Notes: generated by a model not told the origin, from the sequence alone. A stretch of 64,000 nucleotides of DNA from an uncultured Gammaproteobacteria bacterium (GCA_964411255.1 CAYPKD010000006.1:67097-131096), one strand, 5' to 3'; shown: positions 10,593-28,505, counted from the stretch's first letter. Made by a program: numbers and translations.

Positions 10593-10652
10593 AGAAATTA
10601 GTTGTTTAGAAATTTGAAACTGGTATTGGAAATTGGAAAATTGAAATTAGAT

Positions 10653-10985
10653 TTATTTCTTCTCATGAAAATTTTGCCAAACCCTTGATAATTTTGCCAT
10701 TTGCCTACAACTTAAATCATATAAATCAATTGCCTTTTCACAGGTATCTTTATTCACAAAATCACCGTATAAATCAATACATGCTGATAAATGATGAATC
10801 ATTTCATTGGATTCTCCAAGTGCATCATCCAAATATTTTTTCCAATTTTTCTTTTGATATCTTTTTGCAAAACCTTCTGCAATTAATGCTGGGCCTGCTT
10901 TTGAGGCTCTGCTCATTTGATTAACCAAATCATATTTTTCTTCTTGTAGAAGTGATGGAATTATTTTCTTGTGAACCAAAATCAT
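10653..10985 (-). CDS. Four-helix-bundle protein of the 23S rRNA intervening-sequence protein family.
   Basis: The stretch QMSRASKAGPALIAEGFAKR matches the family motif QLxRAAxSIxxNIAEG. The product is 110 aa. Confidence 0.7.
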   Translation of the reverse strand: MILVHKKIIPSLLQEEKYDLVNQMSRASKAGPALIAEGFAKRYQKKNWKKYLDDALGESNEMIHHLSACIDLYGDFVNKDTCEKAIDLYDLSCRQMAKLSRVWQNFHEKK

Positions 10986-11095: not shown

Positions 11096-11389
11096 CTATT
11101 TCTTGCCCTTCATTACCCCTGGCACCTTCACCTGTTCTCCCTCAACTTCAGGCGCTTCGCGCATAAGTTTTTTAATAGAATAAATTAAATGAACTTCATC
11201 ATCACGAACCACATTTTTTAAGCCAGTTATTTGTGAAATCTGCTCAATCTGTGTCAAATCAAGCCCTTTTATCTCTTCAAAATACTTAAAAATATCTGAA
11301 ATTTGTTCAGTATATTTAGCCTTTTCCTCTTCAGTTATGCCCAATCTGGCCAATTCAGACACTTTTTCCACTAAATCTTTATTAATCAT
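11096..11389 (-). CDS. gatC: Asp/Glu-tRNA amidotransferase subunit C.
   Basis: MINKDLVEKVSELARLGITEEEKAKYTEQ is a typical GatC N-terminus. The track start at 11422 is probably too long. Confidence 0.8.
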   Translation of the reverse strand: MINKDLVEKVSELARLGITEEEKAKYTEQISDIFKYFEEIKGLDLTQIEQISQITGLKNVVRDDEVHLIYSIKKLMREAPEVEGEQVKVPGVMKGKK

Positions 11390-11797
11390 ATATTGAATAA
11401 AATAACAAAAATCAAGCACCAAAAATCAAATAAATTACAAGTTCCAATTTTCAAATCACCAATCGAATTATTTTGAATTTTGATCATTGTTATTTGGTTC
11501 TTATTTGAAATTTGTTATTTGTATTTTGGTACTTAAATATTAATCTTAATTTAATTGAATTATATCATAAAATGTCAAAAAAAGCTCTAAATTTGATTTA
11601 ATTTTATTTTTTTCATTTTATAAAAAAAATTCAAACTGCTTAATTTAGCAAAAAATTTTCAAATCAAATTCTAATTCTTGACTTTTGAAAAAATTTATGC
11701 TAGGATATTTAATCATGCTGCGAACAGGAAATTGTTTGCTTAAAAGTAAATATTTTTTTGTTCACAACAACCAAACACACCATTTTAGGAGATACTG

Positions 11798-12304
11798 ATG
11801 AAAAATCCGAAAACTCCGTCTCAGGCACTTCGCCGAATCAAAGAAATCAAGGGTAGAATTTCCACGCTGACCATGCGCGTTCGTCAGAGCGTGTGCTGGG
11901 AAGGTGAGGATAAGCCTACCTTTGAGTTCAAGGCAGTGCTTGAGCAGCGTCAAGAGCTGGTGGCAGAGCTGGTTTCTCTGAAGACCCGTCTGATGAGAAC
12001 CAATTGCTCAGCCACACTCGAGTTCGAGGGCAGCACTCTGACCATTCAGGAAGCAGTTTTCCTGATGGCTGAGATGAAGGGAGAGCTTGAGCTCTACTCC
12101 AGTCTCAGAATCTCAGAGGGCGTGCGCAAAGAACACGCGGGGCATGATCCGAACACTGGCCGGACGATCTTCGATGATATCAAGCTTCACTCAGCAATGA
12201 GGGAGATTGAGCGACTCGAAAAGGTCGAAAAGCTCGAGGAGCGGATCAGTCAGCTCAACGACGCTGTGGAGAGCGCCAACCACCGGACCGATCTCGTTGA
12301 GTAA
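11798..12304 (+). CDS. Coiled-coil cytoplasmic protein, tentatively of the DIP1984/septicolysin-like family.
   Basis: A TAGGAGA RBS is present. The product is 168 aa. The stretch SQALRRIKEIKGRISTLTMRVRQ...LVSLKTRLMRTN is consistent with the family, but the assignment comes from memory only. G+C is visibly higher than in the flanking DNA. Confidence 0.4.
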   Translation: MKNPKTPSQALRRIKEIKGRISTLTMRVRQSVCWEGEDKPTFEFKAVLEQRQELVAELVSLKTRLMRTNCSATLEFEGSTLTIQEAVFLMAEMKGELELYSSLRISEGVRKEHAGHDPNTGRTIFDDIKLHSAMREIERLEKVEKLEERISQLNDAVESANHRTDLVE

Positions 12305-13048: not shown

Positions 13049-13528
13049 ATGCATCAAGGAAACAGCCAGAAGTCCGTATTCATTGCCCCTATCACCTTTG
13101 GCATCAGCCTGATGATTTCAGTGGTCATGCTCACCTACTATGCCAATGAGGGCTATGAACAATCGCTTCAGTCAGCGGCAGCAGCAGATGACGATCTCTA
13201 TGGTTGTCTGGACTCCAGCGACTGCGAAATCGGCGAATTCTGCTACTACGGCCAATGCATGGAGGATTACTGCCAAACTGATCTGGATTGTGAAAATGGC
13301 ATGATCTGTAACGATGCGCAATTCTGCGAGCTTGGACAGCGAGAGCCTGAATGCCTCACTGACTCTGATTGTGGAGATAACGAATTCTGTTTTGACAAAT
13401 TCTGCTCGCGCTACGGCGCTGATGAATTCACTTGTCAAGACGATTCCTACTGTTTGCCTGATGAATGGTGCTGGCACGGCATCTGCACTCCAAACGATTA
13501 CGTTCCTGACCAATCCTTCCTTCTCTAA
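13049..13528 (+). CDS. Secreted or membrane-anchored cysteine-rich protein with DxDCxxGxxC repeats.
   Basis: A GGGAGG RBS is present. An N-terminal TM or signal segment is followed by repeats such as DSSDCEIGEFC, TDLDCENGMIC, TDSDCGDNEFC and QDDSYCLPDEWC. The product is 159 aa. Confidence 0.7.
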   Translation: MHQGNSQKSVFIAPITFGISLMISVVMLTYYANEGYEQSLQSAAAADDDLYGCLDSSDCEIGEFCYYGQCMEDYCQTDLDCENGMICNDAQFCELGQREPECLTDSDCGDNEFCFDKFCSRYGADEFTCQDDSYCLPDEWCWHGICTPNDYVPDQSFLL

Positions 13529-13593
13529 CCCAACCGCGCACCTGCAGTTGGGTTCCCAGATTTGTTGATTAGAAATAATTAATAAATCTGGGA
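13528..13593 (+). repeat. Array element copy 1, the two-hairpin intergenic element.
   Basis: Hairpin 1 is ACCCAAC-cgcgcacctgca-GTTGGGT. The linker is TCCCA. Hairpin 2 is cccagattt-(20-nt AT loop)-aaatctggg. The element starts at the last A of the stop codon. Confidence 0.8.
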
Positions 13594-13630
13594 AATTTGC
13601 CAGCTTTTGAAGCGGGTATATGGAGAGAAA

Positions 13631-13981
13631 ATGAATCAAACAACAAAAAAAGTACTGACGTATCTAGCTGCATTGCTGACTTCTTGTGTGATTGGCTTAA
13701 TTGCTACATACAAGACATCTCCCTTCTTTGATGGAACAGCTCATCACTTGAGCTCTTCAGAGTTGACCATATGGCTTTCTCTGATGATCATTTCCCTACC
13801 CCTTTCTCTTTTTATCTTCGTTTGTATGATCTCCTGTATTTTGAAACATATGAATATACGTAAATTCATTGATTTCGCTACAGGAGTTTCAGCAACAGAA
13901 GATTTTGTCAAAGGGATAACATCACTTGCCAAAGCAGGGATTATGATCCTAAAAGAACACCATCAAAGAAAAACAGAGTAA
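13631..13981 (+). CDS. Small 2-TM membrane protein.
   Basis: A GGAGAG RBS is present. The track ORF starts at 13607, but the ATG at 13631 is the likely start. The product is about 116 aa. Confidence 0.55.
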   Translation: MNQTTKKVLTYLAALLTSCVIGLIATYKTSPFFDGTAHHLSSSELTIWLSLMIISLPLSLFIFVCMISCILKHMNIRKFIDFATGVSATEDFVKGITSLAKAGIMILKEHHQRKTE

Positions 13982-14028: not shown

Positions 14029-14304
14029 ATGCACAAGGAAGATAAGAGAATAATTCTCCACATCTTCGGCGTAATCTGCACATGTGTTCTGGCTATTCCA
14101 TTTCCGGTATTGCTTTTCAATGGAATCTGGTTCGATGACATGCCTGCTACGCAGGCACAGATGGTTTTCAATCTAGTTATGACTTTTCTGACTACCCCTC
14201 TCGCTCTAATTTGCTATATGAAATTCCTCAAACTAATGTGGAAAGCAAGCAAAGAAGACCGACGATATCTTCACAAGCCACTCCGCACTGCATCCCAGCA
14301 GTAA
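14029..14304 (+). CDS. Small 2-TM membrane protein.
   Basis: A GGAGGG RBS is present. The gene shares the 5'-UTR motif gcttttNaagcggg-N6-tggagRg with the 13631 gene. The product is 91 aa. Confidence 0.55.
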   Translation: MHKEDKRIILHIFGVICTCVLAIPFPVLLFNGIWFDDMPATQAQMVFNLVMTFLTTPLALICYMKFLKLMWKASKEDRRYLHKPLRTASQQ

Positions 14305-14308
14305 ATTC

Positions 14309-14374
14309 ACCCAATCGCACATCTGCAATTGGGTTCCCAGATTTGTTTAGCATGAAATATTAAACAGATCTGGG
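14309..14374 (+). repeat. Array element copy 2.
   Basis: Hairpin 1 is ACCCAAT-cgcacatctgca-ATTGGGT, showing the compensatory C-to-T / G-to-A change. The linker is TCCCA. Hairpin 2 is cccagattt...agatctggg. Confidence 0.8.
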
Positions 14375-14414
14375 AATATAGTTTGAACTTTCCACATATC
14401 TTTGGAGAATTATC

Positions 14415-14658: not shown

Positions 14659-14723
14659 ACCCAACCGCGCATCTGCAGTTGGGTTCCCATCTTTGTTTAA
14701 TAGAAATAATAAATAAAGACGGG
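14659..14723 (+). repeat. Array element copy 3.
   Basis: Hairpin 1 is ACCCAAC-cgcgcatctgca-GTTGGGT. The linker is TCCCA. Hairpin 2 is cccatcttt...aaagacggg. Confidence 0.8.
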
Positions 14724-14758
14724 AAGTACCTTTGGTATCTTAACGACAGGAGACTGAA

Positions 14759-15028
14759 ATGGACAGATCTGAAAAGTTGCAACTGCTCTGGATCACTTTG
14801 ATGTGTATTTTCGGAGCTCTAACAATGACTTCTCTACTTGCACTCACAATGTATGCCAGTGGAGATCTACCCAATGAACACATTGCTGCTCTTATCATTC
14901 ACTCCGTCATCGTAGGTCTGTGTGCACCAGCAACTGCTCTTCTCGGCGTCAAGGCATACCGCTACAAACGCACCTCCCAGCATCTACCTCAACCGCACTC
15001 CTGCAATATGGAAAGGTATTCGTCATGA
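14759..15028 (+). CDS. Small 2-TM membrane protein.
   Basis: An AGGAGA RBS is present. The stop overlaps the next gene's start (ATGA). The product is 89 aa. Confidence 0.55.
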   Translation: MDRSEKLQLLWITLMCIFGALTMTSLLALTMYASGDLPNEHIAALIIHSVIVGLCAPATALLGVKAYRYKRTSQHLPQPHSCNMERYSS

Positions 15029-15507
15029 TGAAATGTGAACAGTTTGAAGCACTGAATCTGAGGCTGCAGCATATCCGCGCAATCAAAGGCCGAAATGATG
15101 GCTATGTTGCCGGATTCAAGGAAGATGCGTTCGCTGCAGGCTTTTGCCTGGAGGATTTCGGCATTACTGAAGATGAGCTCAATGAGCTTGTCAAACTCGG
15201 ATTTCGGGCAGAGGCTGAAAGGCGCCTGGCTCTGACAATCTGGCCAATTCCAGAAGAAGGCATTTTCATCACCCCTCCAGAAATGGAATTTGAATTTTTC
15301 GTCCATTTCATGGAAAAGGGAGATCTGGCCTTCAAGGACTTTGGTATCACTCCTCTGCAGCTGGCTGAGCATCTGGTTCGCATTCATCAACTCTTCGATG
15401 GCTGCGTAACTGATGAAGAGAAAGAGTTGGCTCAAAGGCAGCTCTGCCAGCACGTTGAACTGGAGCCAAACTTCCTCTTCCATCAGCCAGAACCACCAGG
15501 CTACTAA
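15025..15507 (+). CDS. Cytoplasmic hypothetical protein with an internal duplication.
   Basis: The ATG at 15025 overlaps the upstream TGA stop, which suggests translational coupling. The FGIT-x-(D/L)-x-L motif occurs twice. The track start at 14920 is probably too far upstream. Confidence 0.5.
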   Translation: MMKCEQFEALNLRLQHIRAIKGRNDGYVAGFKEDAFAAGFCLEDFGITEDELNELVKLGFRAEAERRLALTIWPIPEEGIFITPPEMEFEFFVHFMEKGDLAFKDFGITPLQLAEHLVRIHQLFDGCVTDEEKELAQRQLCQHVELEPNFLFHQPEPPGY

Positions 15508-15533: not shown

Positions 15534-15598
15534 ACCCAACCGCACTTCTGCAGTTGGGTTCCCATCTTTGTTTGTTAAAAATAATGAGCAAAGACGGG
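15534..15598 (+). repeat. Array element copy 4.
   Basis: Hairpin 1 is ACCCAAC-cgcacttctgca-GTTGGGT. The linker is TCCCA. Hairpin 2 is cccatcttt...aaagacggg. Confidence 0.8.
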
Positions 15599-15653
15599 AA
15601 TAATCCCAAATTGACAACAAGTGCCTATAAAAGGCACTCAAGGGAGACAAAGA

Positions 15654-16013
15654 ATGAATTTTACCAAAACCCTGATTCTGACAATCTCTGCAATGGCAGT
15701 TTTCAGCTGTTCCAGCCAGTCTGAAACAGCAAAGACTGACAGTGCGCAACAGAAAACTCAGACTGTCAGTGGCTGGGCAATCGAACCTGGATCGTCTGGG
15801 ATCTATTCAGCTCCAGTCAAACTGATCTGGGGAACTTACAGTGGCTATGGCAAATTCCTGGTAGAGCCAGCCAGTGACAGCTGCCACTTTGCTTCCAAAA
15901 AAGTGGGAGTGGGCAATCCCACTGGGATTGCCAGTCACAAGCAGTTTGGTCCCTATATTTTCACAGGCAGTTCAGACTGCCAGGTAAAGCTCACCAAAAT
16001 CTATCACTTGTAA
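15654..16013 (+). CDS. Lipoprotein.
   Basis: An AAGGGAGA RBS is present. The signal peptide MNFTKTLILTISAMAVFSCSS carries a lipobox. The track start at 15621 is less likely. Confidence 0.6.
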   Translation: MNFTKTLILTISAMAVFSCSSQSETAKTDSAQQKTQTVSGWAIEPGSSGIYSAPVKLIWGTYSGYGKFLVEPASDSCHFASKKVGVGNPTGIASHKQFGPYIFTGSSDCQVKLTKIYHL

Positions 16014-16197: not shown

Positions 16198-16263
16198 TCC
16201 AATCAGCAAACCTGCTAATTGGATTCCCAGCTTTGTTTGTTAATAATAATTAGCAAAGCTGGG
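16197..16263 (+). repeat. Array element copy 5.
   Basis: Hairpin 1 is ATCCAAT-cagcaaacctgct-AATTGGA. The linker is TTCCCA. Hairpin 2 is cccagctttg...caaagctggg, with co-varying stem positions. Confidence 0.75.
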
Positions 16264-16316
16264 AGAAGTTCAATTACAATTCAATCATTTTCCCCAAAAT
16301 GGGGAGGAGGACACCA

Positions 16317-18017
16317 ATGAGCACCATTTTCAAGAGCATTCTTGTCTGCACACTGATTTGGACTGCCAGCTGCGCTGGCGAGGAAGGCATTACGCTTTCC
16401 AATGACTGTAGCAGTGACTATGACTGTCCGGAGAACTCTTTCTGTTCTCAGAACGGTGAATGCATGGAAAAAATAGAAACGATCGTCCCAGCCTACATCT
16501 ATACCACCGGACAGAACGTCCGTAGATCTGGGGACAATCGTATCGACCTGTGCGATGGCCAGGACAATGATGAAGATGGTCTGACTGACGAAAATGATCC
16601 CAATGTGATGCAAGACTGCACTGCTTTGGTCATTTTCGAAGGCAATATGGTTCATGTCCAAGGTTATCTGGCCTGCAGTTCACTCGGGCTGGTCTGCGCC
16701 CCTCCGCCAATCGAACTTTGTCAGTTGAATTCTGAAGTCTGTTCTAACGGACTGGATGACAACTGCAATGGACTCGAAGACGAGGGCTGTAACAATTCCG
16801 AACCTGTCGATGACGACAACGACAATGACGGATACAGTCCCTCTGATGGCGACTGTGATGACAACAACCACAATGTCAGCCCTGCAGCTGTCGAATACTG
16901 CGATGATATTGACAACAACTGTGACGGGCAGACAGACGAGAGCGATCCGCAAGAAGGTTTGATCTGTATCGATCTAACCACCATCAATGGCAATGTTGTG
17001 CCGGTTGTTGGCCTGTGGGAATGTGCTCCAGCAAGTGAGCTGCGGTGCAAATTCAGCCCTGAGCACTGCCGGAATTACGAAATCTGCAACAACGGCTTTG
17101 ATGATACTTGCGACGGCGTCATTGACGACGGCTGCGATCAGACAACAGTCTCTTCTGACTGCGATGATAATGATCCCTGCACGCACGATGTACCAACCTC
17201 TGACGGGGTTTACCAGTGGTGCGAACACATCATGATCTGCGACGAGGACGGCGATGGCCAGGTAAATAACCAAAACGGTGGAGCTGACTGCGATGACAAT
17301 GACCCCTCTGTTGGCATGTGGTTTCCAGAGCTCTGCGATGGCAAAGACAATGATTGCGACGGCTTAATGGACGAAGGATGCTGTCCTGAAGGCTATCAGT
17401 TGGTCGAAGATGCGTGTTTCCCTATCGAACAGGGCACTCCCTGCAATGGCGAATATGATCCGTACGTTGGGGCCGAATGCGAAATCGTCTACTGTCTTCC
17501 CTCTGAAGACAGTGAGGTTTGTGAGGAAACCGTACTCCAGGGTTCATGGGTCTGTGGCATTGATGGCTATTTCATCTGCCAGGCAAATCCCAATACCTGT
17601 ACTGACGACTACTACATGTTCATCTCAGCAAACACACCTTCTGGCATGGCTGCTCCCAGTCCAGAAATGAAACTGGCTGAGCTCTGGATCGTAGCTATGT
17701 CTGATGACATGTATGTCGAATCGCTCACCTTCAATGTAGCCTCATTGGTTTCCTATCCTGATAACAACGATGAAACATGGGTTCTGCGAGACAAGGCTAC
17801 TTCTGAAGTGATCGCCCTGGAAATCGAAGACATCACTGGCAATGAAAATGGCCAGGTGGAATTCATTCTGAATCCACCCGCTTTCATTGCCAAAACCGAT
17901 GAGTTGGTAGTCGAAGTCTATGCAGACACGACTGAAATGTCCTTCAATGACATGATCCAGCTCTACACGCCAAACCCCTGCGGAGATGACATCTACGCTG
18001 GCGCCCTGCTCTTCTAG
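16317..18017 (+). CDS. Large secreted cysteine-rich lipoprotein with MopE-type putative metal-binding repeats.
   Basis: A GGAGGAGG RBS is present. The signal peptide is MSTIFKSILVCTLIWTASC. At least five repeats of the form ExCxNGxDDxCDGxxDEGC appear: IDLCDGQDNDEDGLTDEND, EVCSNGLDDNCNGLEDEGC, YCDDIDNNCDGQTDESD, EICNNGFDDTCDGVIDDGC and ELCDGKDNDCDGLMDEGC. The track start is 16299. Confidence 0.75.
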   Translation: MSTIFKSILVCTLIWTASCAGEEGITLSNDCSSDYDCPENSFCSQNGECMEKIETIVPAYIYTTGQNVRRSGDNRIDLCDGQDNDEDGLTDENDPNVMQDCTALVIFEGNMVHVQGYLACSSLGLVCAPPPIELCQLNSEVCSNGLDDNCNGLEDEGCNNSEPVDDDNDNDGYSPSDGDCDDNNHNVSPAAVEYCDDIDNNCDGQTDESDPQEGLICIDLTTINGNVVPVVGLWECAPASELRCKFSPEHCRNYEICNNGFDDTCDGVIDDGCDQTTVSSDCDDNDPCTHDVPTSDGVYQWCEHIMICDEDGDGQVNNQNGGADCDDNDPSVGMWFPELCDGKDNDCDGLMDEGCCPEGYQLVEDACFPIEQGTPCNGEYDPYVGAECEIVYCLPSEDSEVCEETVLQGSWVCGIDGYFICQANPNTCTDDYYMFISANTPSGMAAPSPEMKLAELWIVAMSDDMYVESLTFNVASLVSYPDNNDETWVLRDKATSEVIALEIEDITGNENGQVEFILNPPAFIAKTDELVVEVYADTTEMSFNDMIQLYTPNPCGDDIYAGALLF

Positions 18018-18032
18018 AACTCCTTCCCTAAT

Positions 18033-18097
18033 ACCCAATCAAGCATCTTTGATTGGGTTCCCATCTTTGTTTGTTAAAAATAATAAATAAAGATGGG
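18033..18097 (+). repeat. Array element copy 6.
   Basis: Hairpin 1 is a 9-bp stem, cccaatcaa-gcatct-ttgattggg. The linker is TTCCCA. Hairpin 2 is cccatcttt...aaagatggg, a perfect stem. Confidence 0.8.
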
Positions 18098-18120
18098 GTT
18101 TCACTGCAAAAGGAGGAAGA

Positions 18121-18525
18121 ATGAACGAAAGGAACAAATATTTAATTTGCCTTTTGTTTTTAAGCTTTCTGATTATCCTAATGCTGACATTTGTCTGCAT
18201 TGGGGTAAATTTTGCGCAGAAAATACCCCAATATGCAGTCAAAATTGTACTGTCAATGTTCTTATCACTTGTTTGCTTAGGTTGCTTTTATGGAACGCTA
18301 TATGTAACTTTGCATTTTCATAAAACTCAAAAAATAGAAAAAGCACTCCAAAAAGCTGCCCAAGAACAAGCAAACAGATCAACCATCCATCCAATAGACG
18401 ACCCAACGAGGTCACAAGTCATTCAATTACCAGCTTACAACACATATGACTGCCAGCTTAGCTGGGATATTGAGATGGAATCTTTAGAGCTAAAAAAACG
18501 TGTATCTACTTCAGACATAGATTAA
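18121..18525 (+). CDS. Membrane protein with 2-3 TM helices.
   Basis: An AAGGAGGAAG RBS is present. The product is 134 aa. Confidence 0.55.
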   Translation: MNERNKYLICLLFLSFLIILMLTFVCIGVNFAQKIPQYAVKIVLSMFLSLVCLGCFYGTLYVTLHFHKTQKIEKALQKAAQEQANRSTIHPIDDPTRSQVIQLPAYNTYDCQLSWDIEMESLELKKRVSTSDID

Positions 18526-18533
18526 ACCAAGAG

Positions 18534-18597
18534 TCCTAACTGTACACTAACAGTTAGGATTCCAAATTTGTTTGTAAAATATTTATAAATAAATTTG
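18534..18597 (+). repeat. Array element copy 7, the most divergent copy.
   Basis: Hairpin 1 is cctaactgt-acacta-acagttagg, a perfect 9-bp stem of different sequence. The linker is ATTCCAAA. Hairpin 2 is ccaaattt...aaatttgg. Confidence 0.7.
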
Positions 18598-18636
18598 GGA
18601 AATGAACATTCGAAATTGATATTTTTGGAGGATAAA

Positions 18637-19863
18637 ATGAAAACGCTTGTCGATTATCTCAACAAGCATTATCCACAAGGCTTTTGTTCAGCCTTAGAGG
18701 ATGATTTCAGGAAAAAGCACAGTGTCAGAATCAGACGCCAGGATGAACTGTTCCAATTCAAGTACTGGCTATTCGATTCTTCGTTTTCAAACGAAGTAAC
18801 TGGCCAAAGCAGAGGGCACATTGTAGCTTTTACAAACGGCAAGTGGGTATTTCGCTCGCGACCGTTTGACAAATTTTTCAACCGACACGAAGGTTTCTGC
18901 CCGATCAATGCAAAAGGTGAATTCGAACGGCTAATGCCAGAATTTACCTTGATTGAAAAGGCAGATGGCACAATGATCCAGCTCTGGTGGGATCCAGAAA
19001 GACAAATCTGGAGGCTTTCCACAACCGGTAGGATCAATGCTGAGGCATTGGATGACTTTCCAGACCTAATCATTGATCAGCTCTTTCTTCGAGTGCTTGG
19101 CAGAAAGCTGGAAGATTTGGACAGCATCCTCGACAAGAACAATACGTATCTTTTCGAGCTCTGCGCCAAAGAAAACGCCATTTTGACCAAGTATCCAACT
19201 GATCGAGCTTATCTGCTTACCTACAGAAACACACAAAATGGAGACTATGCCACCCTTCAGCAGGTCGCTGATCTGACCACAATTCTCAAGCAAACTGGCT
19301 GCAATCTGGGCCAGCTGTTCACAGCAAAACTTTCTGATCTGGGCCTGTCTTCTCTCAATGAACTCGCTGATTTCATTGACCAGCAGTCGAAAAATCCAGA
19401 ATTCCCAGATCCGCTTGAAGGTTTTGTCATTTGGCATGAGAACATGCCTGTGGCTAAGATGAAAACCGCGCTTTACAAGCAGTTTTTCTCTTTTTCCGGT
19501 GGAGACATGACATTTGCCAGAAAAAAAGTTGTCGAAGCGTTCTTTCAAGAACAGCTCGATGATGTCTGGCATGTGCTCAATGAAAGGCTGCTGGAACTGG
19601 CTGATTCACTTCCCCAAAAGGTACGGAAAATCGCAGAGCAAATCGAAAGACTTGCCAAAGAGCTATTTTCCAACACCTATCCAGACCGCAAGTCCTATGC
19701 TCAGGCAGTATTGGCCTTGCCAATGGACAAGAGGTTCAAAGACATTTTCTTCCGCCATCATGAGCAATTGCAAGCTGACCCCTCAAGAGCCTTTGAGTTT
19801 TTGATGGAAAAGCTGCAAAACCATGAGAACTGGAAAAAATTCATGGATCTCTGGCTCACCTAA
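18637..19863 (+). CDS. Putative ATP-dependent RNA ligase (KxDG nucleotidyltransferase, Rnl-like).
   Basis: Motif I is KADG, within LIEKADGTMIQL. Motif III-like is YLFELCA. Motif IV is EGFVIW. Motif V is AKMKTALYK. A GGAGG RBS precedes the ATG at 18637. The track start at 18595 is a TTG. Confidence 0.5.
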   Translation: MKTLVDYLNKHYPQGFCSALEDDFRKKHSVRIRRQDELFQFKYWLFDSSFSNEVTGQSRGHIVAFTNGKWVFRSRPFDKFFNRHEGFCPINAKGEFERLMPEFTLIEKADGTMIQLWWDPERQIWRLSTTGRINAEALDDFPDLIIDQLFLRVLGRKLEDLDSILDKNNTYLFELCAKENAILTKYPTDRAYLLTYRNTQNGDYATLQQVADLTTILKQTGCNLGQLFTAKLSDLGLSSLNELADFIDQQSKNPEFPDPLEGFVIWHENMPVAKMKTALYKQFFSFSGGDMTFARKKVVEAFFQEQLDDVWHVLNERLLELADSLPQKVRKIAEQIERLAKELFSNTYPDRKSYAQAVLALPMDKRFKDIFFRHHEQLQADPSRAFEFLMEKLQNHENWKKFMDLWLT

Positions 19864-19866
19864 TCA

Positions 19867-19930
19867 CCCAATCAAGCATCTTTGATTGGGTTCCCAGCTT
19901 TGTTTAGTATAATTACTGTGCAAAGCTGGG
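19867..19930 (+). repeat. Array element copy 8.
   Basis: Hairpin 1 is cccaatcaa-gcatct-ttgattggg. Hairpin 2 is cccagctttg...caaagctggg, with TATAAT in its loop. Confidence 0.8.
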
Positions 19931-19962
19931 CAAAGTTGACACAATACAAAGGAGACGATATA

Positions 19963-20244
19963 ATGGGAAATTCGTTTGAGGAACTTGAAAAAAAAGTGAT
20001 GCAAGACCAGGTTGCCAGAACAGCAGCCATTGAAAACCGCCTGCGTCGAAAATTCGGAGAAAAGTTTGAGATTCGTCGCAGACAGCAAGGCCTAAGTATC
20101 AAAAAGCTGGCTAAAGCAGCCAAAGTTTCAGAAACTCAGGTCAGACGGGCGCTCCATCGAGAACTCGGCGGCAATCTCCAGCTCAAAACCATTGTCCGAA
20201 TCGCTGATGTTCTTGGTTTGAATATCTCTATTTCTGCCAGGTAA
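19963..20244 (+). CDS. XRE-family helix-turn-helix transcriptional regulator, HigA-like with an N-terminal extension.
   Basis: An AGGAGA RBS is present. The HTH reads QGLSIKKLAKAAKVSETQVRRALHRE...LKTIVRIADVLGL. The track start is 19882. Confidence 0.6.
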   Translation: MGNSFEELEKKVMQDQVARTAAIENRLRRKFGEKFEIRRRQQGLSIKKLAKAAKVSETQVRRALHRELGGNLQLKTIVRIADVLGLNISISAR

Positions 20245-20251
20245 ACATCAA

Positions 20252-20315
20252 ACCCAACCGCACTCATGCAGTTGGGTTCCCAGTTTTGTTTGCTAATAAT
20301 AGTAAATAAAACCGG
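20252..20315 (+). repeat. Array element copy 9.
   Basis: Hairpin 1 is ACCCAAC-cgcactcatgca-GTTGGGT. The linker is TCCCA. Hairpin 2 is cccagtttt...aaaaccggg. Confidence 0.8.
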
Positions 20316-20360
20316 GACTTGTTTCTTGACAAACAAATCTTTCCAAAGTAGGAGGAAAAG

Positions 20361-22331
20361 ATGAGAGCTTTTTACACCATTCTTATGTCTTTTTTAATCT
20401 GCAACTGCGGTGGCGGAGATTCCACTCCGCCCACATCAGAAGAAACTGATGCTGGCCCGCAGATTTCATGCGGACCCAATACTATTCTGATTGACAATGT
20501 CTGCTGGTCAAAGGATGAAGCCTGCGACGGTGAAGACGATGACGGCGACGGAGAGACTGATGAAGGTTGTCCCAATTGGGATGAAATCAACATTACACTC
20601 CATTGCGACGAGGGGTTTGCATTTGAAAACGGACAATGCGTTCCACAAGAAGTGTGTGACAGCATTGACAATAACGGAAACGGAAGCATAGATGAAGGCT
20701 GTTATATTGGCGGGGCACTTCTCTGCCATTCTGATGATGACTGCGTTGACGCGCCCTGGGGGCCGTTCTGCGTTCCAGAGCTAATACTAGGAGTAAATAT
20801 TTGTCAGGCATGTCTTCAGGATACGCCAAGCGGGCAACATTCAGTTAATGGTGTCAGCCCTGGCTGCAGCGGCGATCTGCTTGTCTGCGCCTGGGGAGTT
20901 CAAGATGTGCCAGTCACAGATATCACGCCTGATGGTTTTGCTGGATTCTACTGGTGCGTCGAGTGTGTCAATAGCACAGATTGCCCAGACAACTACTTGT
21001 GCCTTGAGCAAGAATGCATTCCAAATTTCGAGGATGCTGACAGCGACGGCTATCCCAGTGACGTAGACTGCAATGACTCAGATAGTTCTATCCATCCAGA
21101 TGCTTTAGAAATCTGCGATGGGATTGACAACGACTGCGATAATGCCACTGATGAAGGCTGTCCTGTCCAAAACCACGACCAAGACAATGATGGTTACTCG
21201 CCGTTTGACGGCGACTGCGACGATGATGATCCCAATGTCAATCCAGGCGCTATTGACTGGTGCGACCAGCTCAATAACGACTGTGATGACCTAATGAATG
21301 AGGATGATCCAAACATTGGACATCCTTGTACGGCAGATCTTTACGATCCAGCCACTGATACGTATTTTATCGTCCAGGGCAGCTATGTTTGCGGCGAAGG
21401 CGGCATTGTCTGTGCTCCACCCACGCTCGAAGAGTGTCAGTTGTCTGATGAAATCTGTAATGATATCTTCGACGACAACTGTGACGGTCAGGTGGATGAG
21501 GGTTGCGAGCAACTCTCATGTGAGACAGATGATGACTGCGGTGCTGGTGGCGGCTGCGGCTGTGATCCAGACGGCAACTTTGTCTGCTCTGGCCAATCTG
21601 GCCTGTGTGTAGACGGAATATGCGAAACCACTCAAAACGTGATGGAATGTGAGCTCGGCTGCAACGAACTCGGCTGTCTTTCTGAATGCACAGAAACACC
21701 AACCGGACCAGCTGAGCCAGGCGATGTGGTCAAAGGCACATTTGATGCTCTCTACTTCATCTCCCAGGAGGTTTTCAGATATGTTGTACCCAATGAGACA
21801 ATGTATCTTTCCTGGCATTATGACAACTCCTGTGTCAAAACCATCACTGATCAGGAACTGGCTGACATGCCTTTGGCAGCAAATGTGTGCATGAGATATG
21901 GCACGCATCTGGTCAAAATCCAGTCCATTCCTATTGTCTATGCGGTCAGCACAAACTGCAATATCTACGAAATTGCTGATGAACAATCAGCTCAAGAACT
22001 TTTTGGCACAAACTGGCAAGATCGCATCTATGATGTACCTGATTCATTCTGGCCAAACTACACCATCATAGGAATTGATCTGTTCGGCAGTTGGTATCCT
22101 GATGGCTTTGTGCTACAGGTTGCTGGAAGCGATGATGTTTACCTGATCTGGAATGAGCAAAAACGACTTTTTGCCTCAGAACAGGCTTTCATTGATAATC
22201 GTTTCCAGGAAAGATTCATCACCATGGCAACTCAGGAAACGCTGGACTTTTACCCTGATGGACCAGACATCACAGGCTGCGAGCCTGATTTGGTAGATGA
22301 TTCTCAGGGCGGAGGAGGCGTTTGCCTCTAA
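20361..22331 (+). CDS. Large secreted cysteine-rich protein with MopE-type repeats and a C-terminal domain shared with the 2676-aa giant protein.
   Basis: A TAGGAGGAAAAG RBS is present, and the protein has a signal peptide. Repeats include EICDGIDNDCDNATDEGC, DWCDQLNNDCDDLMNED and EICNDIFDDNCDGQVDEGC. The C-terminal stretch IPIVYAVSTNCN...GTNWQDRIYDVPDSFWPNYTIIG aligns with the giant protein's IPKVYAVSANGT...GENWASYVDDVPDAFFINYKIG. Confidence 0.75.
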   Translation: MRAFYTILMSFLICNCGGGDSTPPTSEETDAGPQISCGPNTILIDNVCWSKDEACDGEDDDGDGETDEGCPNWDEINITLHCDEGFAFENGQCVPQEVCDSIDNNGNGSIDEGCYIGGALLCHSDDDCVDAPWGPFCVPELILGVNICQACLQDTPSGQHSVNGVSPGCSGDLLVCAWGVQDVPVTDITPDGFAGFYWCVECVNSTDCPDNYLCLEQECIPNFEDADSDGYPSDVDCNDSDSSIHPDALEICDGIDNDCDNATDEGCPVQNHDQDNDGYSPFDGDCDDDDPNVNPGAIDWCDQLNNDCDDLMNEDDPNIGHPCTADLYDPATDTYFIVQGSYVCGEGGIVCAPPTLEECQLSDEICNDIFDDNCDGQVDEGCEQLSCETDDDCGAGGGCGCDPDGNFVCSGQSGLCVDGICETTQNVMECELGCNELGCLSECTETPTGPAEPGDVVKGTFDALYFISQEVFRYVVPNETMYLSWHYDNSCVKTITDQELADMPLAANVCMRYGTHLVKIQSIPIVYAVSTNCNIYEIADEQSAQELFGTNWQDRIYDVPDSFWPNYTIIGIDLFGSWYPDGFVLQVAGSDDVYLIWNEQKRLFASEQAFIDNRFQERFITMATQETLDFYPDGPDITGCEPDLVDDSQGGGGVCL

Positions 22332-22336
22332 CGACA

Positions 22337-22369
22337 AAACCTGCTAGTTAATTACTGGCAGGTTTTTTA
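22337..22369 (+). terminator. Intrinsic terminator T1 (aacctgc...gcaggtt + T6).
   Basis: The hairpin is followed by a U-tract immediately after the 22331 stop. Confidence 0.6.
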
Positions 22370-22392
22370 TTTTAGAAAACTGATATCCAGGT

Positions 22393-22461: not shown

Positions 22462-22842
22462 ATGTTTTGGATGGCAGAAGGCGACTGGGGAGGCCAGATC
22501 TACTTTACTGTAGATCAGGATATGGTAAAAATTTCAAACAAACAACTCGTAGAGCTGGTTCGAGAACTGGACACCTATGCCTGGGATTGCAATGAGGGTC
22601 AAGGCTGGGATATCCGTCTGATGGAAATCATAAAAGAAGAATTCGACGGCATTATCCCAGGCGGCATGGGTGGCGGACGATATATTCCTGGTGAACTCTG
22701 GGTGCATAAGGCATTTGACCCTATCAAAGAGCATATCCTCCAAGTTCTTCAGGGAAAACTGGACAAACTGTCTGATAAGATCAATATCCCGCCTACTGAA
22801 CTGGAAAAATGGCAAACCGCAATGAGGCTGCTAGAAGAATAA
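22462..22842 (+). CDS. Small cytoplasmic protein; paralog of the 22931 gene.
   Basis: The two share QIYFTVD..LVKIS and YIPG.(L/I)W(V/I)H motifs. The product is 126 aa. Confidence 0.55.
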   Translation: MFWMAEGDWGGQIYFTVDQDMVKISNKQLVELVRELDTYAWDCNEGQGWDIRLMEIIKEEFDGIIPGGMGGGRYIPGELWVHKAFDPIKEHILQVLQGKLDKLSDKINIPPTELEKWQTAMRLLEE

Positions 22843-22847
22843 CTTTC

Positions 22848-22877
22848 AAACCTGCTGAAAAATTTAGCAGGTTTTTT
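22848..22877 (+). terminator. Intrinsic terminator T2 (aaacctgctg-aaaaattt-agcaggttt + T).
   Basis: A hairpin is followed by a T6 run. Confidence 0.6.
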
Positions 22878-22930
22878 GATTAAATAAAATAAGTATGATA
22901 ATCTTTTTTAAGTAAGACCTAGGAGGAATC

Positions 22931-23296
22931 ATGGGCGTCTGGATTGTAAAAAGCAGTGATGAAAGTCAAATTTATTTCACTGTTGACGAATCATTAGTAA
23001 AAATTTCTGAAGAAAAACTGCTTGAGCTGGCTCAAGACATTGATCAAATGGCAATGCCAACAACACCTGACAAAAACGTAAATCTTTTTAGGATTAAATC
23101 TGATAATCCAGCAACTATTGAATGGGTGCTTAATAAAAGTCAGGCTAAGGGCCAATATATTCCAGGACAAATTTGGATTCATCCGGATTTACTGGTTATA
23201 AAAAGCAGGATAATAGCGGTCGTTCAGGGCACAAAACGTAAAGTGACGCGACAATTGATTATTCCAAAAAAAGTTAGAGAAATAAAAATTGATTAA
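22931..23296 (+). CDS. Small cytoplasmic protein; paralog of the 22462 gene.
   Basis: A GGAGGAA RBS is present. The product is 121 aa. Confidence 0.55.
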   Translation: MGVWIVKSSDESQIYFTVDESLVKISEEKLLELAQDIDQMAMPTTPDKNVNLFRIKSDNPATIEWVLNKSQAKGQYIPGQIWIHPDLLVIKSRIIAVVQGTKRKVTRQLIIPKKVREIKID

Positions 23297-23303
23297 AAAT
23301 AAT

Positions 23304-23332
23304 TCACCTACCAAACACTTTGGTAGGTTTTT
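23304..23332 (+). terminator. Intrinsic terminator T3 (cacctaccaaa-cac-tttggtaggt + T6).
   Basis: A hairpin is followed by a T run. It is followed by ttaattcgaaa..gcgag, which is also present after T5. Confidence 0.6.
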
Positions 23333-23372
23333 TAATTCGAAAAGCTAGGTAGGAAATGCGAGATACGACTTA

Positions 23373-23449: not shown

Positions 23450-24481
23450 ATGCGTAAAATCAGCCTCGCATATATTCTAATTCTTATTTTTTCAGCTTGT
23501 GGTGTATCTGGAACAACAAAACCAACTTGTGAATCTGACGCAGGAAATGAATGCGATTGTAATGAAGAAGATGTTTATTCACTTGCACCTGAAACGCAGC
23601 AAACTGTGATTTGTAGCGAAAGTACTCATCTTGAGGGCGATGAATGCGTTGCCAATGAGGTCGAAGGACTTGATCAAGATGGTGATGGATTCCCCTATCC
23701 TGAAGACTGTGATGACAGACGCATTGATGTTAATCCTGAAGCTGAAGAAATTTGTGATGCCAGAGATAATGATTGTGATGGTGAGATGGATGGTGAAGGC
23801 GTGTGTGCCTATGAATGTACGAATACATTTGTAACATATGATCAATCACATTCAGAAAATGAAGTGAATATCAACCTAGCATATACGACTGATTATAGTA
23901 CTGAATCTTCTGTATTCATAATCATGAGTGGATGTCGTCCTAATTATTTGCGATTTGAACCTCCTTTTATGATTATTGGAGACGCCTACAAAATGAGATT
24001 TGATGTATCCGGATTAGAACCTGGGGATGTCATTGAAAGATTCGTAGTCAGACAGATTATTGGTGAAACACCAATTCCGTTATTCTACGATGAAAGTAGT
24101 GGAATCGAAGGACGACTTGAACTTCGTACTTTGCATTATGAAAATGACGAGGGAGTACTAGGAGAACAAACCTATTCAACTTATCAAAACAATGACGGAA
24201 GTTTTATTTTTGAATATATTCCAATTCCAAATAATTTCTCCCCATACCTTACTTTTTCTCTAGGCCTACGTCACGGATTCGCCGGATCTCTTCAAATCTC
24301 ATTTGAGGGACTTGAGGATTTCATCGTAACAGGCAAAGATACCATTACCGGACGGCCTTTCCCTCAGCAAGGTGAATATGTAATGGTCTTGTGTCCAGAT
24401 AGAGACAATGACGGCGAAGATGATCACAGATGCGGTGGAACCGATCCTGATGACAAGTCTCTCTATCCTGACAATCTTTAA
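23450..24481 (+). CDS. Secreted lipoprotein with one MopE-type repeat.
   Basis: An AGGAG RBS is present. The signal peptide with lipobox reads LILIFSACG. The repeat is DCDDRRIDVNPEAEEICDARDNDCDGEMDGEG. The product is 343 aa. Confidence 0.7.
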   Translation: MRKISLAYILILIFSACGVSGTTKPTCESDAGNECDCNEEDVYSLAPETQQTVICSESTHLEGDECVANEVEGLDQDGDGFPYPEDCDDRRIDVNPEAEEICDARDNDCDGEMDGEGVCAYECTNTFVTYDQSHSENEVNINLAYTTDYSTESSVFIIMSGCRPNYLRFEPPFMIIGDAYKMRFDVSGLEPGDVIERFVVRQIIGETPIPLFYDESSGIEGRLELRTLHYENDEGVLGEQTYSTYQNNDGSFIFEYIPIPNNFSPYLTFSLGLRHGFAGSLQISFEGLEDFIVTGKDTITGRPFPQQGEYVMVLCPDRDNDGEDDHRCGGTDPDDKSLYPDNL

Positions 24482-24483
24482 TT

Positions 24484-24512
24484 GCCTGCCAAACATTTTG
24501 GCAGGTTTTTTT
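24484..24512 (+). terminator. Intrinsic terminator T4 (gcctgccaaa-catt-ttggcaggt + T7).
   Basis: A hairpin is followed by a T run. Confidence 0.6.
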
Positions 24513-25283: not shown

Positions 25284-25289
25284 AACTAA

Positions 25290-25318
25290 TCTGCCAAACA
25301 ATTTGGTGGGTTTTTTTT
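25290..25318 (+). terminator. Intrinsic terminator T5 (ctgccaaa-caa-tttggtgg + T8).
   Basis: A hairpin with G-U pairs is followed by a T run. The flank ttaattcgaaatgcgag matches that after T3. Confidence 0.55.
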
Positions 25319-25465: not shown

Positions 25466-26314
25466 ATGCGAGAACAACGAAACAAAGCAAGTAATGTTAT
25501 TATTTATGTTGGACTAATCGGAATAATAGTCGAGTTGATTATGCTTCTGGTTGTGATTCGTACACATTACTCTTCAACAGATTTTTCAATAGAAAATCAA
25601 AATTTCTTTACAAGGATTTTTTCAACAGAAAACCCAGAAATAAAACGAGAAAAACAGGCTGGCGAATCAACATACAATGGCAGAGACGATGACGGTGACG
25701 GCTTCGTTGACGAAGACTATGTCTGTGATCCTTCAAAAGACGTCAAAATGCTTTGCTTTGCCGGCGATGATGAAAAAATTGGAACCATGAGCTGCAATGA
25801 CAACGGTGTTGGTTTTACCAAATGTGAAACCAACTGCACTATTGGTGATGCTATGAACATACGCATGATGCATAGTTATCCCATGGGATCTCCTCTGTAC
25901 GTAGAATATGATCATACATACCGCTGCGTCAGGGCAGGCAGACTGGGTGAAGGCAAAACCCAATGGAAAACTGCTCAGCTGAAACAAGTTCCTTTGGAAG
26001 AAACGTATAGTCCTGCCGCCCTTATGAGGATGGGATTGTCCAAATCAGATTACAGGAAGCATTATGACAATCCACAAGAAGGACGAGTGGCACTTGCTGA
26101 AAATCAGTATCTAGGAGAATGCACTATTAGCGAGACCCGCAACTGCGGCACAAATCTCGGCCAATGCGTCAAAGGCACACAAATTTGCCAAGACAATGGC
26201 CGAGGCCAAGGCATCTGGTCAAAATGCGGTGGTGAATTTGTAGGAAGAAGCATCGAGATCTGCCTTGACGGTCTGGACAACGATTGCAACGGCCAAATCG
26301 ATGAAGGCTGTTAG
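25466..26314 (+). CDS. TM-anchored extracytoplasmic protein with MopE-type repeats.
   Basis: There is an N-terminal TM helix. Repeats are GRDDDGDGFVDEDYVCDP and ICLDGLDNDCNGQIDEGC. The product is 282 aa. Confidence 0.65.
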   Translation: MREQRNKASNVIIYVGLIGIIVELIMLLVVIRTHYSSTDFSIENQNFFTRIFSTENPEIKREKQAGESTYNGRDDDGDGFVDEDYVCDPSKDVKMLCFAGDDEKIGTMSCNDNGVGFTKCETNCTIGDAMNIRMMHSYPMGSPLYVEYDHTYRCVRAGRLGEGKTQWKTAQLKQVPLEETYSPAALMRMGLSKSDYRKHYDNPQEGRVALAENQYLGECTISETRNCGTNLGQCVKGTQICQDNGRGQGIWSKCGGEFVGRSIEICLDGLDNDCNGQIDEGC

Positions 26315-26324
26315 CAGTTGACAA

Positions 26325-26351
26325 CCTGCCAAACAATTTGGTGGGTTTTTT
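26325..26351 (+). terminator. Intrinsic terminator T6 (cctgccaaa-caa-tttggtggg + T6).
   Basis: Its sequence is nearly identical to T5. Confidence 0.55.

Positions 26352-26426: not shown

Positions 26427-26428
<2 letters not shown>
26363..26428 (-). terminator. Perfect 19-bp inverted repeat (aacaaactaaagtttgtca / tgacaaactttagtttgtt) with a 28-nt loop and a T7 run on the minus strand; likely the ligA terminator.
   Basis: The right arm overlaps the ligA stop. On the minus strand a U-tract follows the stem. It is convergent with T6. Confidence 0.5.

Positions 26429-28505
<2,077 letters not shown>

Follow-up and report, generated by a model that had tools for sequence, protein, structure and literature searches.

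A strain-variable island of PF11617 (MopE-motif) repeat proteins between ligA and gatC in a Patescibacteria genome

The only solved relative of the PF11617 repeats (Cu-binding_MopE, 'putative metal-binding motif') is MopE* (PDB 2VOV), a protein of the MopE/CorA type that is surface-associated or secreted and carries one N-terminal PF11617 unit. Its high-affinity Cu(I) site is formed by His132, His203 and kynurenine-130. The N-terminal 46 residues of MopE* are unseen in the crystal, being cleaved or disordered, and CaCl2 guards the protein from a proteolysis that otherwise strips N-terminal residues on storage (PMC3423442). An alignment by Tucker et al. sets the PF11617 consensus beside the 'C-rich' motif of the teneurins (PMC3278476). 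The 1.5 Å structure of the teneurin C-rich domain has three Ca2+ ions held by conserved Asp, Glu and Asn residues, together with three disulfides, and its geometry resembles that of thrombospondin type-3 (T3) repeats and low-density lipoprotein receptor class A (LDL-A) modules (PMC9058538). Here we describe a group of cysteine-rich, PF11617-type repeat proteins encoded in a 64,000-nucleotide stretch of DNA deposited under an uncultured Gammaproteobacteria bacterium (GCA_964411255.1 CAYPKD010000006.1:67097-131096; the whole stretch is called the window below). An initial annotation had reported them, around positions 16317-22331, as a multi-copy secreted family of MopE-type repeats, and we examined the repeats, their probable ligand, and the island of genes in which they lie.

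We observed that the MopE-type family assignment was borne out. All four repeat peptides quoted in the initial annotation were recovered at the genes named, using an open reading frame (ORF) listing and translation. A strict regular expression for the motif (C-x2-4-D-[DNE]-[DNT]-C-[DN]-[GDCN]-xx-[DN]-[EDG]), run on the six frames of the window, gave 10 matches, all on the + strand at 16.5-26.3 kb, and the CxDGxDNDCDGxxDE core was not found elsewhere in these six frames. With a looser pattern for DxDxDG-type acidic loops, 16 units were seen, distributed 5+5+2+2+2 over five proteins, and a further one was seen at ~262 in g16317. The repeat carriers are therefore five + strand genes, starting at 16317, 20361, 23450, 24672 and 25466 (g16317, g20361 and so on in what follows), with 16-17 units in total. 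Alignment of the units gave the consensus ExCDGxDNDCDGxxDEGC, and the core repeats within single proteins. The gathering cut-off of PF11617 is 27 bits (whole-protein score), and three of the five proteins passed it: that of 16299/16317-18017 (55.7 bits, E 5.6e-15, three stretches), that of 20361-22331 (52.1 bits, three stretches) and that of 23450-24481 (34.1 bits). The product of 25466-26314, at 26.4 bits, fell 0.6 bits short. The product of 24609/24672-25283 had no Pfam match, yet it contains two clear units, CNGLDDDCDCEIDE and CDNLDADCDGEIDEDC.

The initial annotation had counted at least seven related secreted genes, among them the gene at 13049 as a variant of the same repeat. Five of them do share PF11617-type units; the 13049 protein belongs to another repeat family, since it matches DUF7107 and Dickkopf_N and has zero acidic-loop units. 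It is built from C-x-[ST]-D-x-D-C-x-x-G-x-x-C units of the DUF7107/Dickkopf/Dumpy-like kind, and similar units, with a weak match to Dumpy (1OIG), also occur inside a swappable module of g20361 (~120-220). The span 16317-22331 also holds three unrelated genes, encoding a protein with two transmembrane (TM) segments, a T4 Rnl1-like RNA ligase and an HTH_3 regulator. The start codon of the first repeat gene is 16317 and not 16299, as seen from the ribosome-binding site (RBS) GGAGGAGGA and from the gene callers, which give 566 amino acids (aa). The fifth gene, for which 24609 and 24672 had been offered as starts, most likely begins at 24672, on inspection of its RBS and of public gene calls.

Candidates for the signal peptides and lipoboxes that had been claimed were also found, as judged by hydropathy and regular expressions: seven island proteins have hydrophobic N-termini or lipobox-like motifs behind RBSs. 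Lipobox-like N-termini were seen in 15654 (VFS|C), 16317 (TAS|C), 20361 (the non-canonical LICNC), 23450 (FSA|C) and 24672 (FSA|C), and signal-anchor-like N-termini in 13049 and 25466. The five repeat proteins are cysteine-rich and very acidic. Asp and Glu make up 15-21% of their residues (42-134 acidic residues per protein), while Lys and Arg make up 11% of g25466 and 2-6% of each of the other four, and the net charge runs from -12 to -123.

To compare the repeats with proteins of known structure, phmmer was run against the PDB. Residues 225-266 of g20361 aligned with residues 6-47 of MopE* (E 9e-4), g16317 gave zero matches, and none of the island proteins showed homology to the copper-binding body of MopE* (residues ~47-336). 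The island proteins thus differ from MopE* in having neither its beta-rich copper-binding body nor its His/His/kynurenine site, and the segment that is shared is the disordered or cleaved one, not a structurally defined metal site. The copper-type 'metal-binding' reading inherited from MopE is therefore unwarranted, as only residues 6-47 align and the Cu(I) site lies elsewhere. We also searched all PDB sequences with a repeat profile built from 15 island units. The best sequence was the C-rich domain of teneurin-4 (7PLP; E 0.45, not significant), and matches 2-5 were two EF-hand proteins, a photoprotein and a subtilase Ca site, all of them experimentally defined Ca2+ loops. The island units are like the teneurin C-rich domain, the thrombospondin type-3 repeats and the LDL-A modules in having an acidic loop, CxDxxDNDxDGxxD, with adjacent cysteines that form disulfides or, in the island units, are predicted to, and in teneurin-4 the residues of this loop bind three Ca2+. 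They are unlike them in placing a Cys inside the loop (DNDCDG), and the likeness is short, with common ancestry not demonstrated. The acidic DxDxDG-type ligand pattern and the neighbouring Cys were visible in all island units. From these sequence patterns we conclude that the units are most likely loops that are stapled by disulfides and bind Ca2+, calcium being better supported as the ligand than copper.

An opposing interpretation is that the repeats are capture sites for Cu or other transition metals, as in MopE/CorA of methanotrophs, and that the proteins scavenge or buffer Cu. It can draw on the Pfam family name, on the alignment of g20361 with MopE*, and on immobilised metal affinity chromatography (IMAC), which hinted that the first 24 residues of MopE* add to its weak, low-affinity Cu(II) binding (PMC3423442). 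However, His132, His203 and Kyn130 lie outside the motif, in the part of MopE* that is unaligned in the island proteins; these proteins have very few His (3-8 each) and Met; and the conserved ligands, Asp, Asn and Glu, are hard oxygen donors typical of Ca2+. Counting further against it, we know of no copper enzymes comparable to particulate methane monooxygenase in a reduced-genome organism of the Candidate Phyla Radiation (CPR). Copper binding by the repeats appears unlikely on these sequence grounds, and Cu capture as the function of the proteins very improbable.

The genome does belong to the CPR (Patescibacteria), as had been suggested. This call is correct because the relatives of the flanking LigA are patescibacterial: it is 78% identical to the LigA of a Patescibacteria group bacterium metagenome-assembled genome (MAG; L009), and 45-60% identical to the ligases of Buchanan-, Falkow-, Moran-, Uhr- and Berkelbacteria. 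The statement that Myxococcota and a few other lineages are the main known carriers of the repeat was wrong. In a single search 8,000 candidates were scored, and 3,419 of them proved to be significant PF11617 proteins, with source names that include Myxococcus/Myxococcota, Uhrbacteria, Bacteroidota (Ferruginibacter), Desulfobacterales, Alphaproteobacteria and a Methanomicrobiales archaeon, so that the repeat is neither rare nor Myxococcota-specific. P0276, a Patescibacteria homolog of g23450, is already named 'putative metal-binding motif-containing protein' at NCBI; our literature searches found no publication on PF11617 in CPR bacteria. P0276 is a 196-aa PF11617 gene adjoining gyrA (L099 10001-10591, JBMORT010000002.1) in the same MAG as L009, and the family is therefore not confined to the ligA island. 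The wider PF11617 proteins, from Myxococcota and many other phyla, share with the island proteins a common 30-residue unit, DCDDxxxxxxPGAxExCDGxDNDCDGxxDE, and are likewise multi-repeat and very acidic; they are secreted, as the island proteins are predicted to be. They differ in having a regular repeat of ~60 aa (consensus YxDADGDGYG...GYV...DCDD...CDGxDNDCDG) in proteins of 800-1,200 aa, whereas the island proteins are shorter, mix full and half units, and have extra Cys-rich modules (DUF7107/Dumpy-like), lipoprotein signals and fusions to Patescibacteria-specific domains.

The C-terminal 217 residues of g20361, which are Cys-poor and consist of three repeats, form a domain of their own. An exhaustive HMMER search of 1.84 billion cluster representatives gave 3,838 relatives of this triple repeat, 2,427 of them at E <= 1e-10, and no Pfam model covers it. 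In these relatives it mostly stands at residues ~30-235, at the N-terminus of proteins of ~1,200 aa; the named carriers are hypothetical proteins of Patescibacteria, and other members are fused to a subtilase and Big_1, or to Ig-like domains. One relative, P0001, is 90% identical over the domain, and two L009 proteins keep the whole g20361 architecture of repeats followed by the triple repeat. An AlphaFold2 (AF2) model made with 22 short family members aligned had a mean predicted local distance difference test (pLDDT) score of 91 and a predicted template modelling (pTM) score of 0.85, and each repeat formed a small sheet and two helices. When this model was compared with the PDB using Foldseek, 11 of the 12 top matches were the periplasmic repeats of EccB1, EccB3 and EccB5 of type VII secretion (E 0.026-0.2, probability <=0.63). 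In agreement with these matches, P0138, a member of the triple-repeat family, matched PF05108 at 39.3 bits (cut-off 27). In a viral structure library the best matches were uncharacterised actinophage proteins (E 9e-7 and 4e-4), and weaker ones lay in amidase, CHAP, M23 and lysin proteins. The EccB1 repeats have been described as similar to the phage wall-binding protein PlyCB, and peptidoglycan binding has been proposed, though not shown, for them (PMC4769845). Like the EccB repeats and PlyCB-type modules, the g20361 domain as modelled consists of repeats of a small beta-sheet and two helices. It differs from EccB in that EccB has four repeats around a core and g20361 has three; there is no type VII secretion context, EccB core domain or TM helix here; and the triple repeat occurs in fusions with surface proteins, subtilases and Ig-like domains. 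We consider that the domain is probably an envelope- or cell-wall-binding module, a reading to which these fold models lend moderate support. Of the other non-repeat regions, the C-terminus of g16317 is a Cys-poor domain of ~130 aa with no assigned fold, and the central domain of g23450 is Cys-free, ~200 aa long and lineage-restricted, being found nowhere else.

The repeat genes lie in an island of 15 kb (~11.5-26.4 kb), in which all genes are on the + strand, while gatC and ligA, which flank it, are on the - strand. Its GC content is 0.39-0.49, as against 0.32-0.37 in the surroundings, a contrast that is also seen in L009. Among 36 ligA loci of more distant CPR genomes there are 28 in which the start of gatC or gatA is found, on the strand of ligA, no more than ~2.2 kb downstream of it, and mostly within a few hundred bases. 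Here 15 kb separate ligA from gatC, and in L009 8.7 kb, and both gaps are filled with opposite-strand, GC-elevated PF11617 genes; L009 has four, two of them ending in a triple repeat of the g20361 type. Since the same locus is found in lineages down to 78% LigA identity, the island is old and vertically inherited in the clade and not a recent transfer. In another CPR lineage (L033 12130-18710) the gap between ligA and gatA is ~6.6 kb and is free of the PF11617 motif. Insertions may have recurred at the ligA-gatC junction.

The initial annotation had called the family multi-copy and diversifying. We compared the window with a sister strain (contigs L005, L006, L091 and L092), in which LigA, GAPDH and an M50 protease are 93-97% identical, and the island proteins 90, 68, 59, 74 and 87%. 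In g20361 the divergence is concentrated at residues ~100-245, where the sister strain has a non-homologous Cys-rich module, and the C-terminal domain is 88-94% identical. The gene order also differs: it is p126, p121, 23450, 24672, 25466 in the window and p126, 24672-like, 23450-like, 25466-like, p121 in the sister strain. Four small cassettes of the left half are missing from the sister strain, which has one more PF11617 gene in their stead, and of the RNA ligase only the C-terminal 136 aa are left (L005 804-1211, L006 1858-2265). The fastest-evolving member is g23450, which is 58.6% identical to its sister-strain ortholog and has at least 5 alleles at 57-64% identity in public data; in a third lineage (LigA 87% identical) a 57%-identical ortholog directly adjoins ligA. 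The ratio of nonsynonymous to synonymous substitution rates (dN/dS) against the sister strain was 0.03-0.055 for the flanks but 0.17-0.26 for the island. The family is thus multi-copy and fast-evolving, and diversifying in the sense that its cassettes turn over, its modules are swapped and its constraint is relaxed; dN/dS stayed well below 1. Variable surface-lipoprotein loci of the Mycoplasma vlp/vsa type are similar in that paralogous lipoprotein genes lie together there and differ between strains in their number, their order and the repeats within them. They are unlike the island in that no invertase or site-specific recombinase was found among its ORFs. A GIY-YIG gene was present just beyond ligA in the sister strain and the third lineage (L005 10023-10334, L006 11077-11388, L098 3367-3645) and absent at the equivalent site of the window (28464-28505); it looks like a small mobile insertion.

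The two halves of the island are punctuated differently. In the right half (22.3-26.35 kb), a promoter scan showed a near-consensus TTGACA-17-TATAAT before every gene, often with an extended -10 TG; sites in the island were found at 12922, 19936, 22393, 23374, 24543 and 25392, and such consensus promoters suggest high expression. The right-half genes are each followed by a conserved hairpin and T-run, CCTGCCAAACAATTTGGTGGGTTTTTT (4 matches within 3 mismatches, 0 expected), which also follows the ortholog in the third lineage (L098, position 1115). In the left half (13.5-20.3 kb), an element of ~67 nucleotides (nt), made of two adjacent hairpins, stands between nearly all genes. Seven full copies and one half copy were found, all on the + strand and only in the island, where 0 were expected by chance. 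Each copy begins somewhere from 1 nt before to 28 nt behind a stop codon, and the next start codon lies 21-53 nt beyond its end. Covariation was examined in 16 copies: those of the window, those of two contigs of the sister strain (L006 and L091), and those of a lineage that is further removed (L094/L095; GatA 68% identical). Pairing was seen in 96.8% of the cells, in comparison to 31-51% when the partner columns were slid by 1-3 positions. There were 41 cells with compensatory double changes (0-10 in the slid controls), and the covariation score was 0.354 (<=0.069 in the controls); 0 of 500 shuffles reached the observed values. G-U pairs were frequent, for example in 9 of 16 copies at two positions, and would be C-A mismatches on the other strand, and therefore the structure is read on the sense strand. 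Most simply, the double hairpin would act as RNA, as an intercistronic stabiliser, a processing site or a terminator. No Rfam family matched it at the gathering threshold or at E <= 1. REP/BIME-type palindromes (repetitive extragenic palindromes and bacterial interspersed mosaic elements) are likewise structured intergenic repeats between co-oriented genes, but the hairpin element was seen only in the island and is not dispersed over the 64-kb window.

Table 1. Genes, domains and structured elements of the ligA-gatC island and its flanks (window coordinates).
Feature	Position	Strand	Evidence and remarks
gatC, left flank	11096-11422	-	PF02686 GatC on called gene
First island gene, DUF6847/DIP1984-family	11798-12304	+	PF20935 37.1 bits; NCBIfam NF038048 below cut-off; 98.8% identical in L091
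Signal-anchored acidic Cys-rich protein, non-PF11617	13049-13528	+	PF23416 (DUF7107) 36.6 bits, PF04706 (Dickkopf_N) 25.7 bits; 16 Cys, charge -27
Double-hairpin copy 1	13528-13594	+	Begins at the 13049 stop codon
Small 2-TM protein cassette	13631-13981	+	Hydropathy; no Pfam match; absent from L091
Small 2-TM protein cassette	14029-14304	+	Hydropathy; no Pfam match; absent from L091
Double-hairpin copy 2	14309-14375	+	
Double-hairpin copy 3	14659-14725	+	
Small 2-TM protein	14759-15028	+	Weak holin-like match below cut-off; 80% identical in L091
160-aa protein	15025-15507	+	Gene call; no Pfam, PHROG or PADLOC match
Double-hairpin copy 4	15534-15600	+	
119-aa lipoprotein-like protein without Cys-rich repeats	15654-16013	+	MNFTKTLILTISAMAVFSC with RBS; no Pfam match
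Half copy of the double hairpin, second hairpin only	16225-16264	+	52 nt upstream of 16317
PF11617 protein 1, 566 aa	16317-18017	+	Lipobox-like signal; 6 acidic-loop units; 40 Cys; charge -107; 90% identical in sister strain
Double-hairpin copy 5	18033-18099	+	
134-aa 2-TM protein	18121-18525	+	Kept in L006 (90%) and L009 (32%)
T4 Rnl1/gp63-like RNA ligase	18637-19863	+	PF09511 61.2 bits; phrog_562 1e-33
Double-hairpin copy 6	19866-19932	+	
HTH_3 (XRE-type) regulator	19963-20244	+	PF01381 27.4 bits; perfect TTGACA-17-TATAAT at 19936-19964
Double-hairpin copy 7	20252-20318	+	
PF11617 protein 2, 656 aa	20361-22331	+	Signal MRAFYTILMSFLICNCGGG; 5 acidic-loop units; ~50 Cys; charge -123
C-terminal triple-repeat domain of protein 2 (residues 440-656), EccB-repeat-like	21678-22331	+	HMMER family, AF2, Foldseek
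Intrinsic terminator after protein 2	22336-22372	+	Weak Rfam match merely reflecting terminator shape
p126, non-secreted, paralog of p121	22462-22842	+	31% identity to p121, E 3e-19; no family matches
Conserved terminator copy	22848-22880	+	
p121, paralog of p126	22931-23296	+	Other position in sister strain
Conserved terminator copy	23306-23334	+	
PF11617 protein 3, 343 aa	23450-24481	+	Canonical lipobox FSA|C; one full PF11617 unit
Conserved terminator copy	24484-24512	+	
Repeat protein 4, 203 aa	24672-25283	+	Lipobox FSA|C; two acidic-loop units; no PF11617 match
Conserved terminator copy	25288-25318	+	
Repeat protein 5, 282 aa	25466-26314	+	N-terminal TM anchor; two units; PF11617 26.4 bits
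Conserved terminator copy, right island end	26323-26351	+	
ligA, NAD-dependent DNA ligase, right flank	26427-28424	-	Pfam domains on called gene; 93% identical in sister strain

The other genes of the island and its surroundings can be seen from Table 1. The small 2-TM proteins number four in all. The paralogs p126 and p121, of ~125 aa each, share an N-terminus of the form IYFTVD...VKIS and have no signal peptide, and their genes stand in between those of the lipoproteins. PADLOC and PHROGs gave no coherent defence or phage signature in the island, and a reading as a defence system was rejected, PADLOC giving only generic HTH 'control protein' matches. Outside the island, gatA and gatC have between them, at ~10650-10985 of the window (L001 293-625), a gene that encodes a 23S rRNA intervening-sequence protein (PF05635), and a giant ORF of 2,676 aa occupies 37249-45279 on the - strand.

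The explanation that we favour, and that we hold to be somewhat probable, is that of a lineage-specific hypervariable cell-surface island in a Patescibacteria genome, encoding Ca2+-stabilised, disulfide-rich, membrane-tethered repeat proteins. The island is inserted on the opposite strand between the normally adjacent ligA and gatC. Its main products would be five membrane-tethered extracellular proteins, of which four are lipoprotein-like and one is signal-anchored. Each unit would form a small disulfide-stapled loop of the DxDxDG type, in which Asp, Asn and Glu side chains chelate Ca2+, the models being the teneurin C-rich domain, the thrombospondin type-3 repeats and the LDL-A modules. Strings of such units would build a rigid, protease-resistant, Ca2+-dependent stalk or scaffold outside the cell, and this stalk would carry non-repeat modules with specific roles. 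The module of g20361 would be the EccB/PlyCB-like triple repeat, probably binding a cell-wall or envelope polymer, and those of g23450 and g16317 would be their lineage-restricted Cys-free domains. The genes act like exchangeable cassettes, with their own promoter and terminator in the right half and split by the sense-strand double hairpin in the left half, and strains differ by gain, loss and reordering of cassettes and by replacement of internal modules. Such strain variation is what one would look for in proteins that meet host cells, phages or grazers, and they may have a part in interactions with a host or with the envelope. Of this explanation, the family membership, the make-up of the island, its variation between strains, the structured element and the fold class of the C-terminal domain are demonstrated, while the Ca2+ binding, the disulfides, the exposure at the surface, the wall binding and the part in host or envelope interaction are inferred.

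Several observations weigh against this explanation. When g20361 was modelled at full length with AF2 (18-sequence alignment), the quality was poor, with a mean pLDDT of 52, and only two canonical units, at ~250-320, reached a pLDDT of 71-88. A Foldseek search of the PDB with this low-confidence model, which was not used as evidence, gave no match at E <= 0.001; the E-values of LRP2 and teneurin-2 were no better than 1.7-4.8. A domain that has little secondary structure would be expected to give such a result. The Ca2+ ligands and disulfides of the units are read from sequence patterns, and the five PDB matches of the repeat profile (E 0.45-4.4) are not significant; they form a coherent resemblance, not proof. 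Some transition-metal binding by the repeats may also occur, by analogy with the IMAC result for MopE*. The EccB fold match is a weak one, with the E-values and probabilities given above, and wall binding by the EccB repeats is itself a hypothesis in the literature (PMC4769845). The signal peptides were judged by eye and regular expression, and the lipobox of g20361 is non-canonical. Lastly, dN/dS was <1 everywhere and <0.4 in every measurable 50-codon window; positive selection was thus not demonstrated.

Besides Cu capture, three other explanations were weighed against the hypervariable surface island. The proteins could form a polyanionic envelope layer, a bulk sink for Ca2+/Mg2+ or a structural coat with no partner-specific recognition role, tethered by lipid at one end and by the wall-binding repeat at the other. 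The net charges, down to -123, would suit such a layer, as would the presence of both a lipobox-like signal and a putative wall-binding domain in g20361, the high expression suggested by the promoters, and the frequency of the triple repeat at the N-terminus of large Patescibacteria envelope proteins. A pure coat, however, is unlikely to show gain, loss and reordering of cassettes, module swaps, and alleles of 57-64% identity beside flanks of 87-97%, and we regard this possibility as rather unlikely. Another possibility is that an episymbiotic CPR bacterium varies its surface by means of a system dedicated to the exchange of cassettes, without a recognisable recombinase. The double hairpins and the near-identical promoter and terminator modules would then be substrates for swapping, duplicating and reordering both the cassettes and the Cys-rich modules. 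If true, the locus would be a functional analog of an integron or of a variable-lipoprotein locus, tuning host attachment or phage escape; we consider this improbable.

The island could also be a mobile element, either a prophage remnant or an integron-like cassette array of the CALIN kind (cluster of attC sites lacking integron-integrases), with the hairpins as recombination sites and the Cys-rich proteins as cargo or as phage receptor-binding proteins. The raised GC, the insertion into a conserved operon and the variation of cassette order between strains would be in keeping with this. So would the arrangement of same-strand cassettes, each with a structured repeat behind it, since the first hairpin of this repeat, ACCCAAC...GTTGGGT, matches the attC R''/R' consensus RYYYAAC/GTTRRRY. 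There is in addition the T4 gp63-like RNA ligase, and DUF6847 has a weak 'tail fibre' PHROG match. However, Pfam, NCBIfam, PHROGs and PADLOC revealed neither an integrase nor a transposase in the island, and no gene for phage structure or packaging. CALINs lack IntI by definition, so that a missing IntI alone is not decisive. The first hairpin spans 26 nt, in comparison to 57-141 nt for the single imperfect hairpin of attC; 7 of the 16 copies read ACCCAAT/ATTGGGT, with T/A where attC needs an invariant C/G; and the many G-U pairs work on the sense strand only, pointing to a structure at the RNA level. On length, variation at the invariant positions, G-U pairs and the missing integrase, the attC reading was rejected. 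The prophage reading, which had been raised by the RNA ligase, was rejected also: the element had zero matches in 2.9 million viral contigs, where the ligase had only distant relatives and no close homolog, and phage structural genes were absent from the island. The age of the locus and its vertical inheritance stand against mobility as well. Taken as a whole, with its cargo or receptor-binding role, the mobile-element explanation is very improbable.

The locus described here is a known protein type in an unusually cassette-like setting, and its proteins are new members of a known domain family; loci of this type are known as well. What is new is the GC-elevated island that splits ligA from gatCA, its cassette turnover, the covarying double hairpin and the unmodelled triple repeat. 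Current ideas are not overturned by these findings; members and context are added to known kinds. The structured intercistronic double hairpin, which has no Rfam family, and the probable envelope-binding triple repeat, which occurs in thousands of Patescibacteria proteins with no Pfam model, each deserve a model of their own. For the family, the Pfam name 'Cu-binding_MopE' is misleading, as the presence of such repeats is no evidence of copper chemistry, and a database-driven misreading is thereby corrected. For the organism, the locus offers a compact candidate set of apparently strongly promoted, putatively lipid-anchored, calcium-type repeat proteins, whose variable parts change between otherwise near-identical strains.

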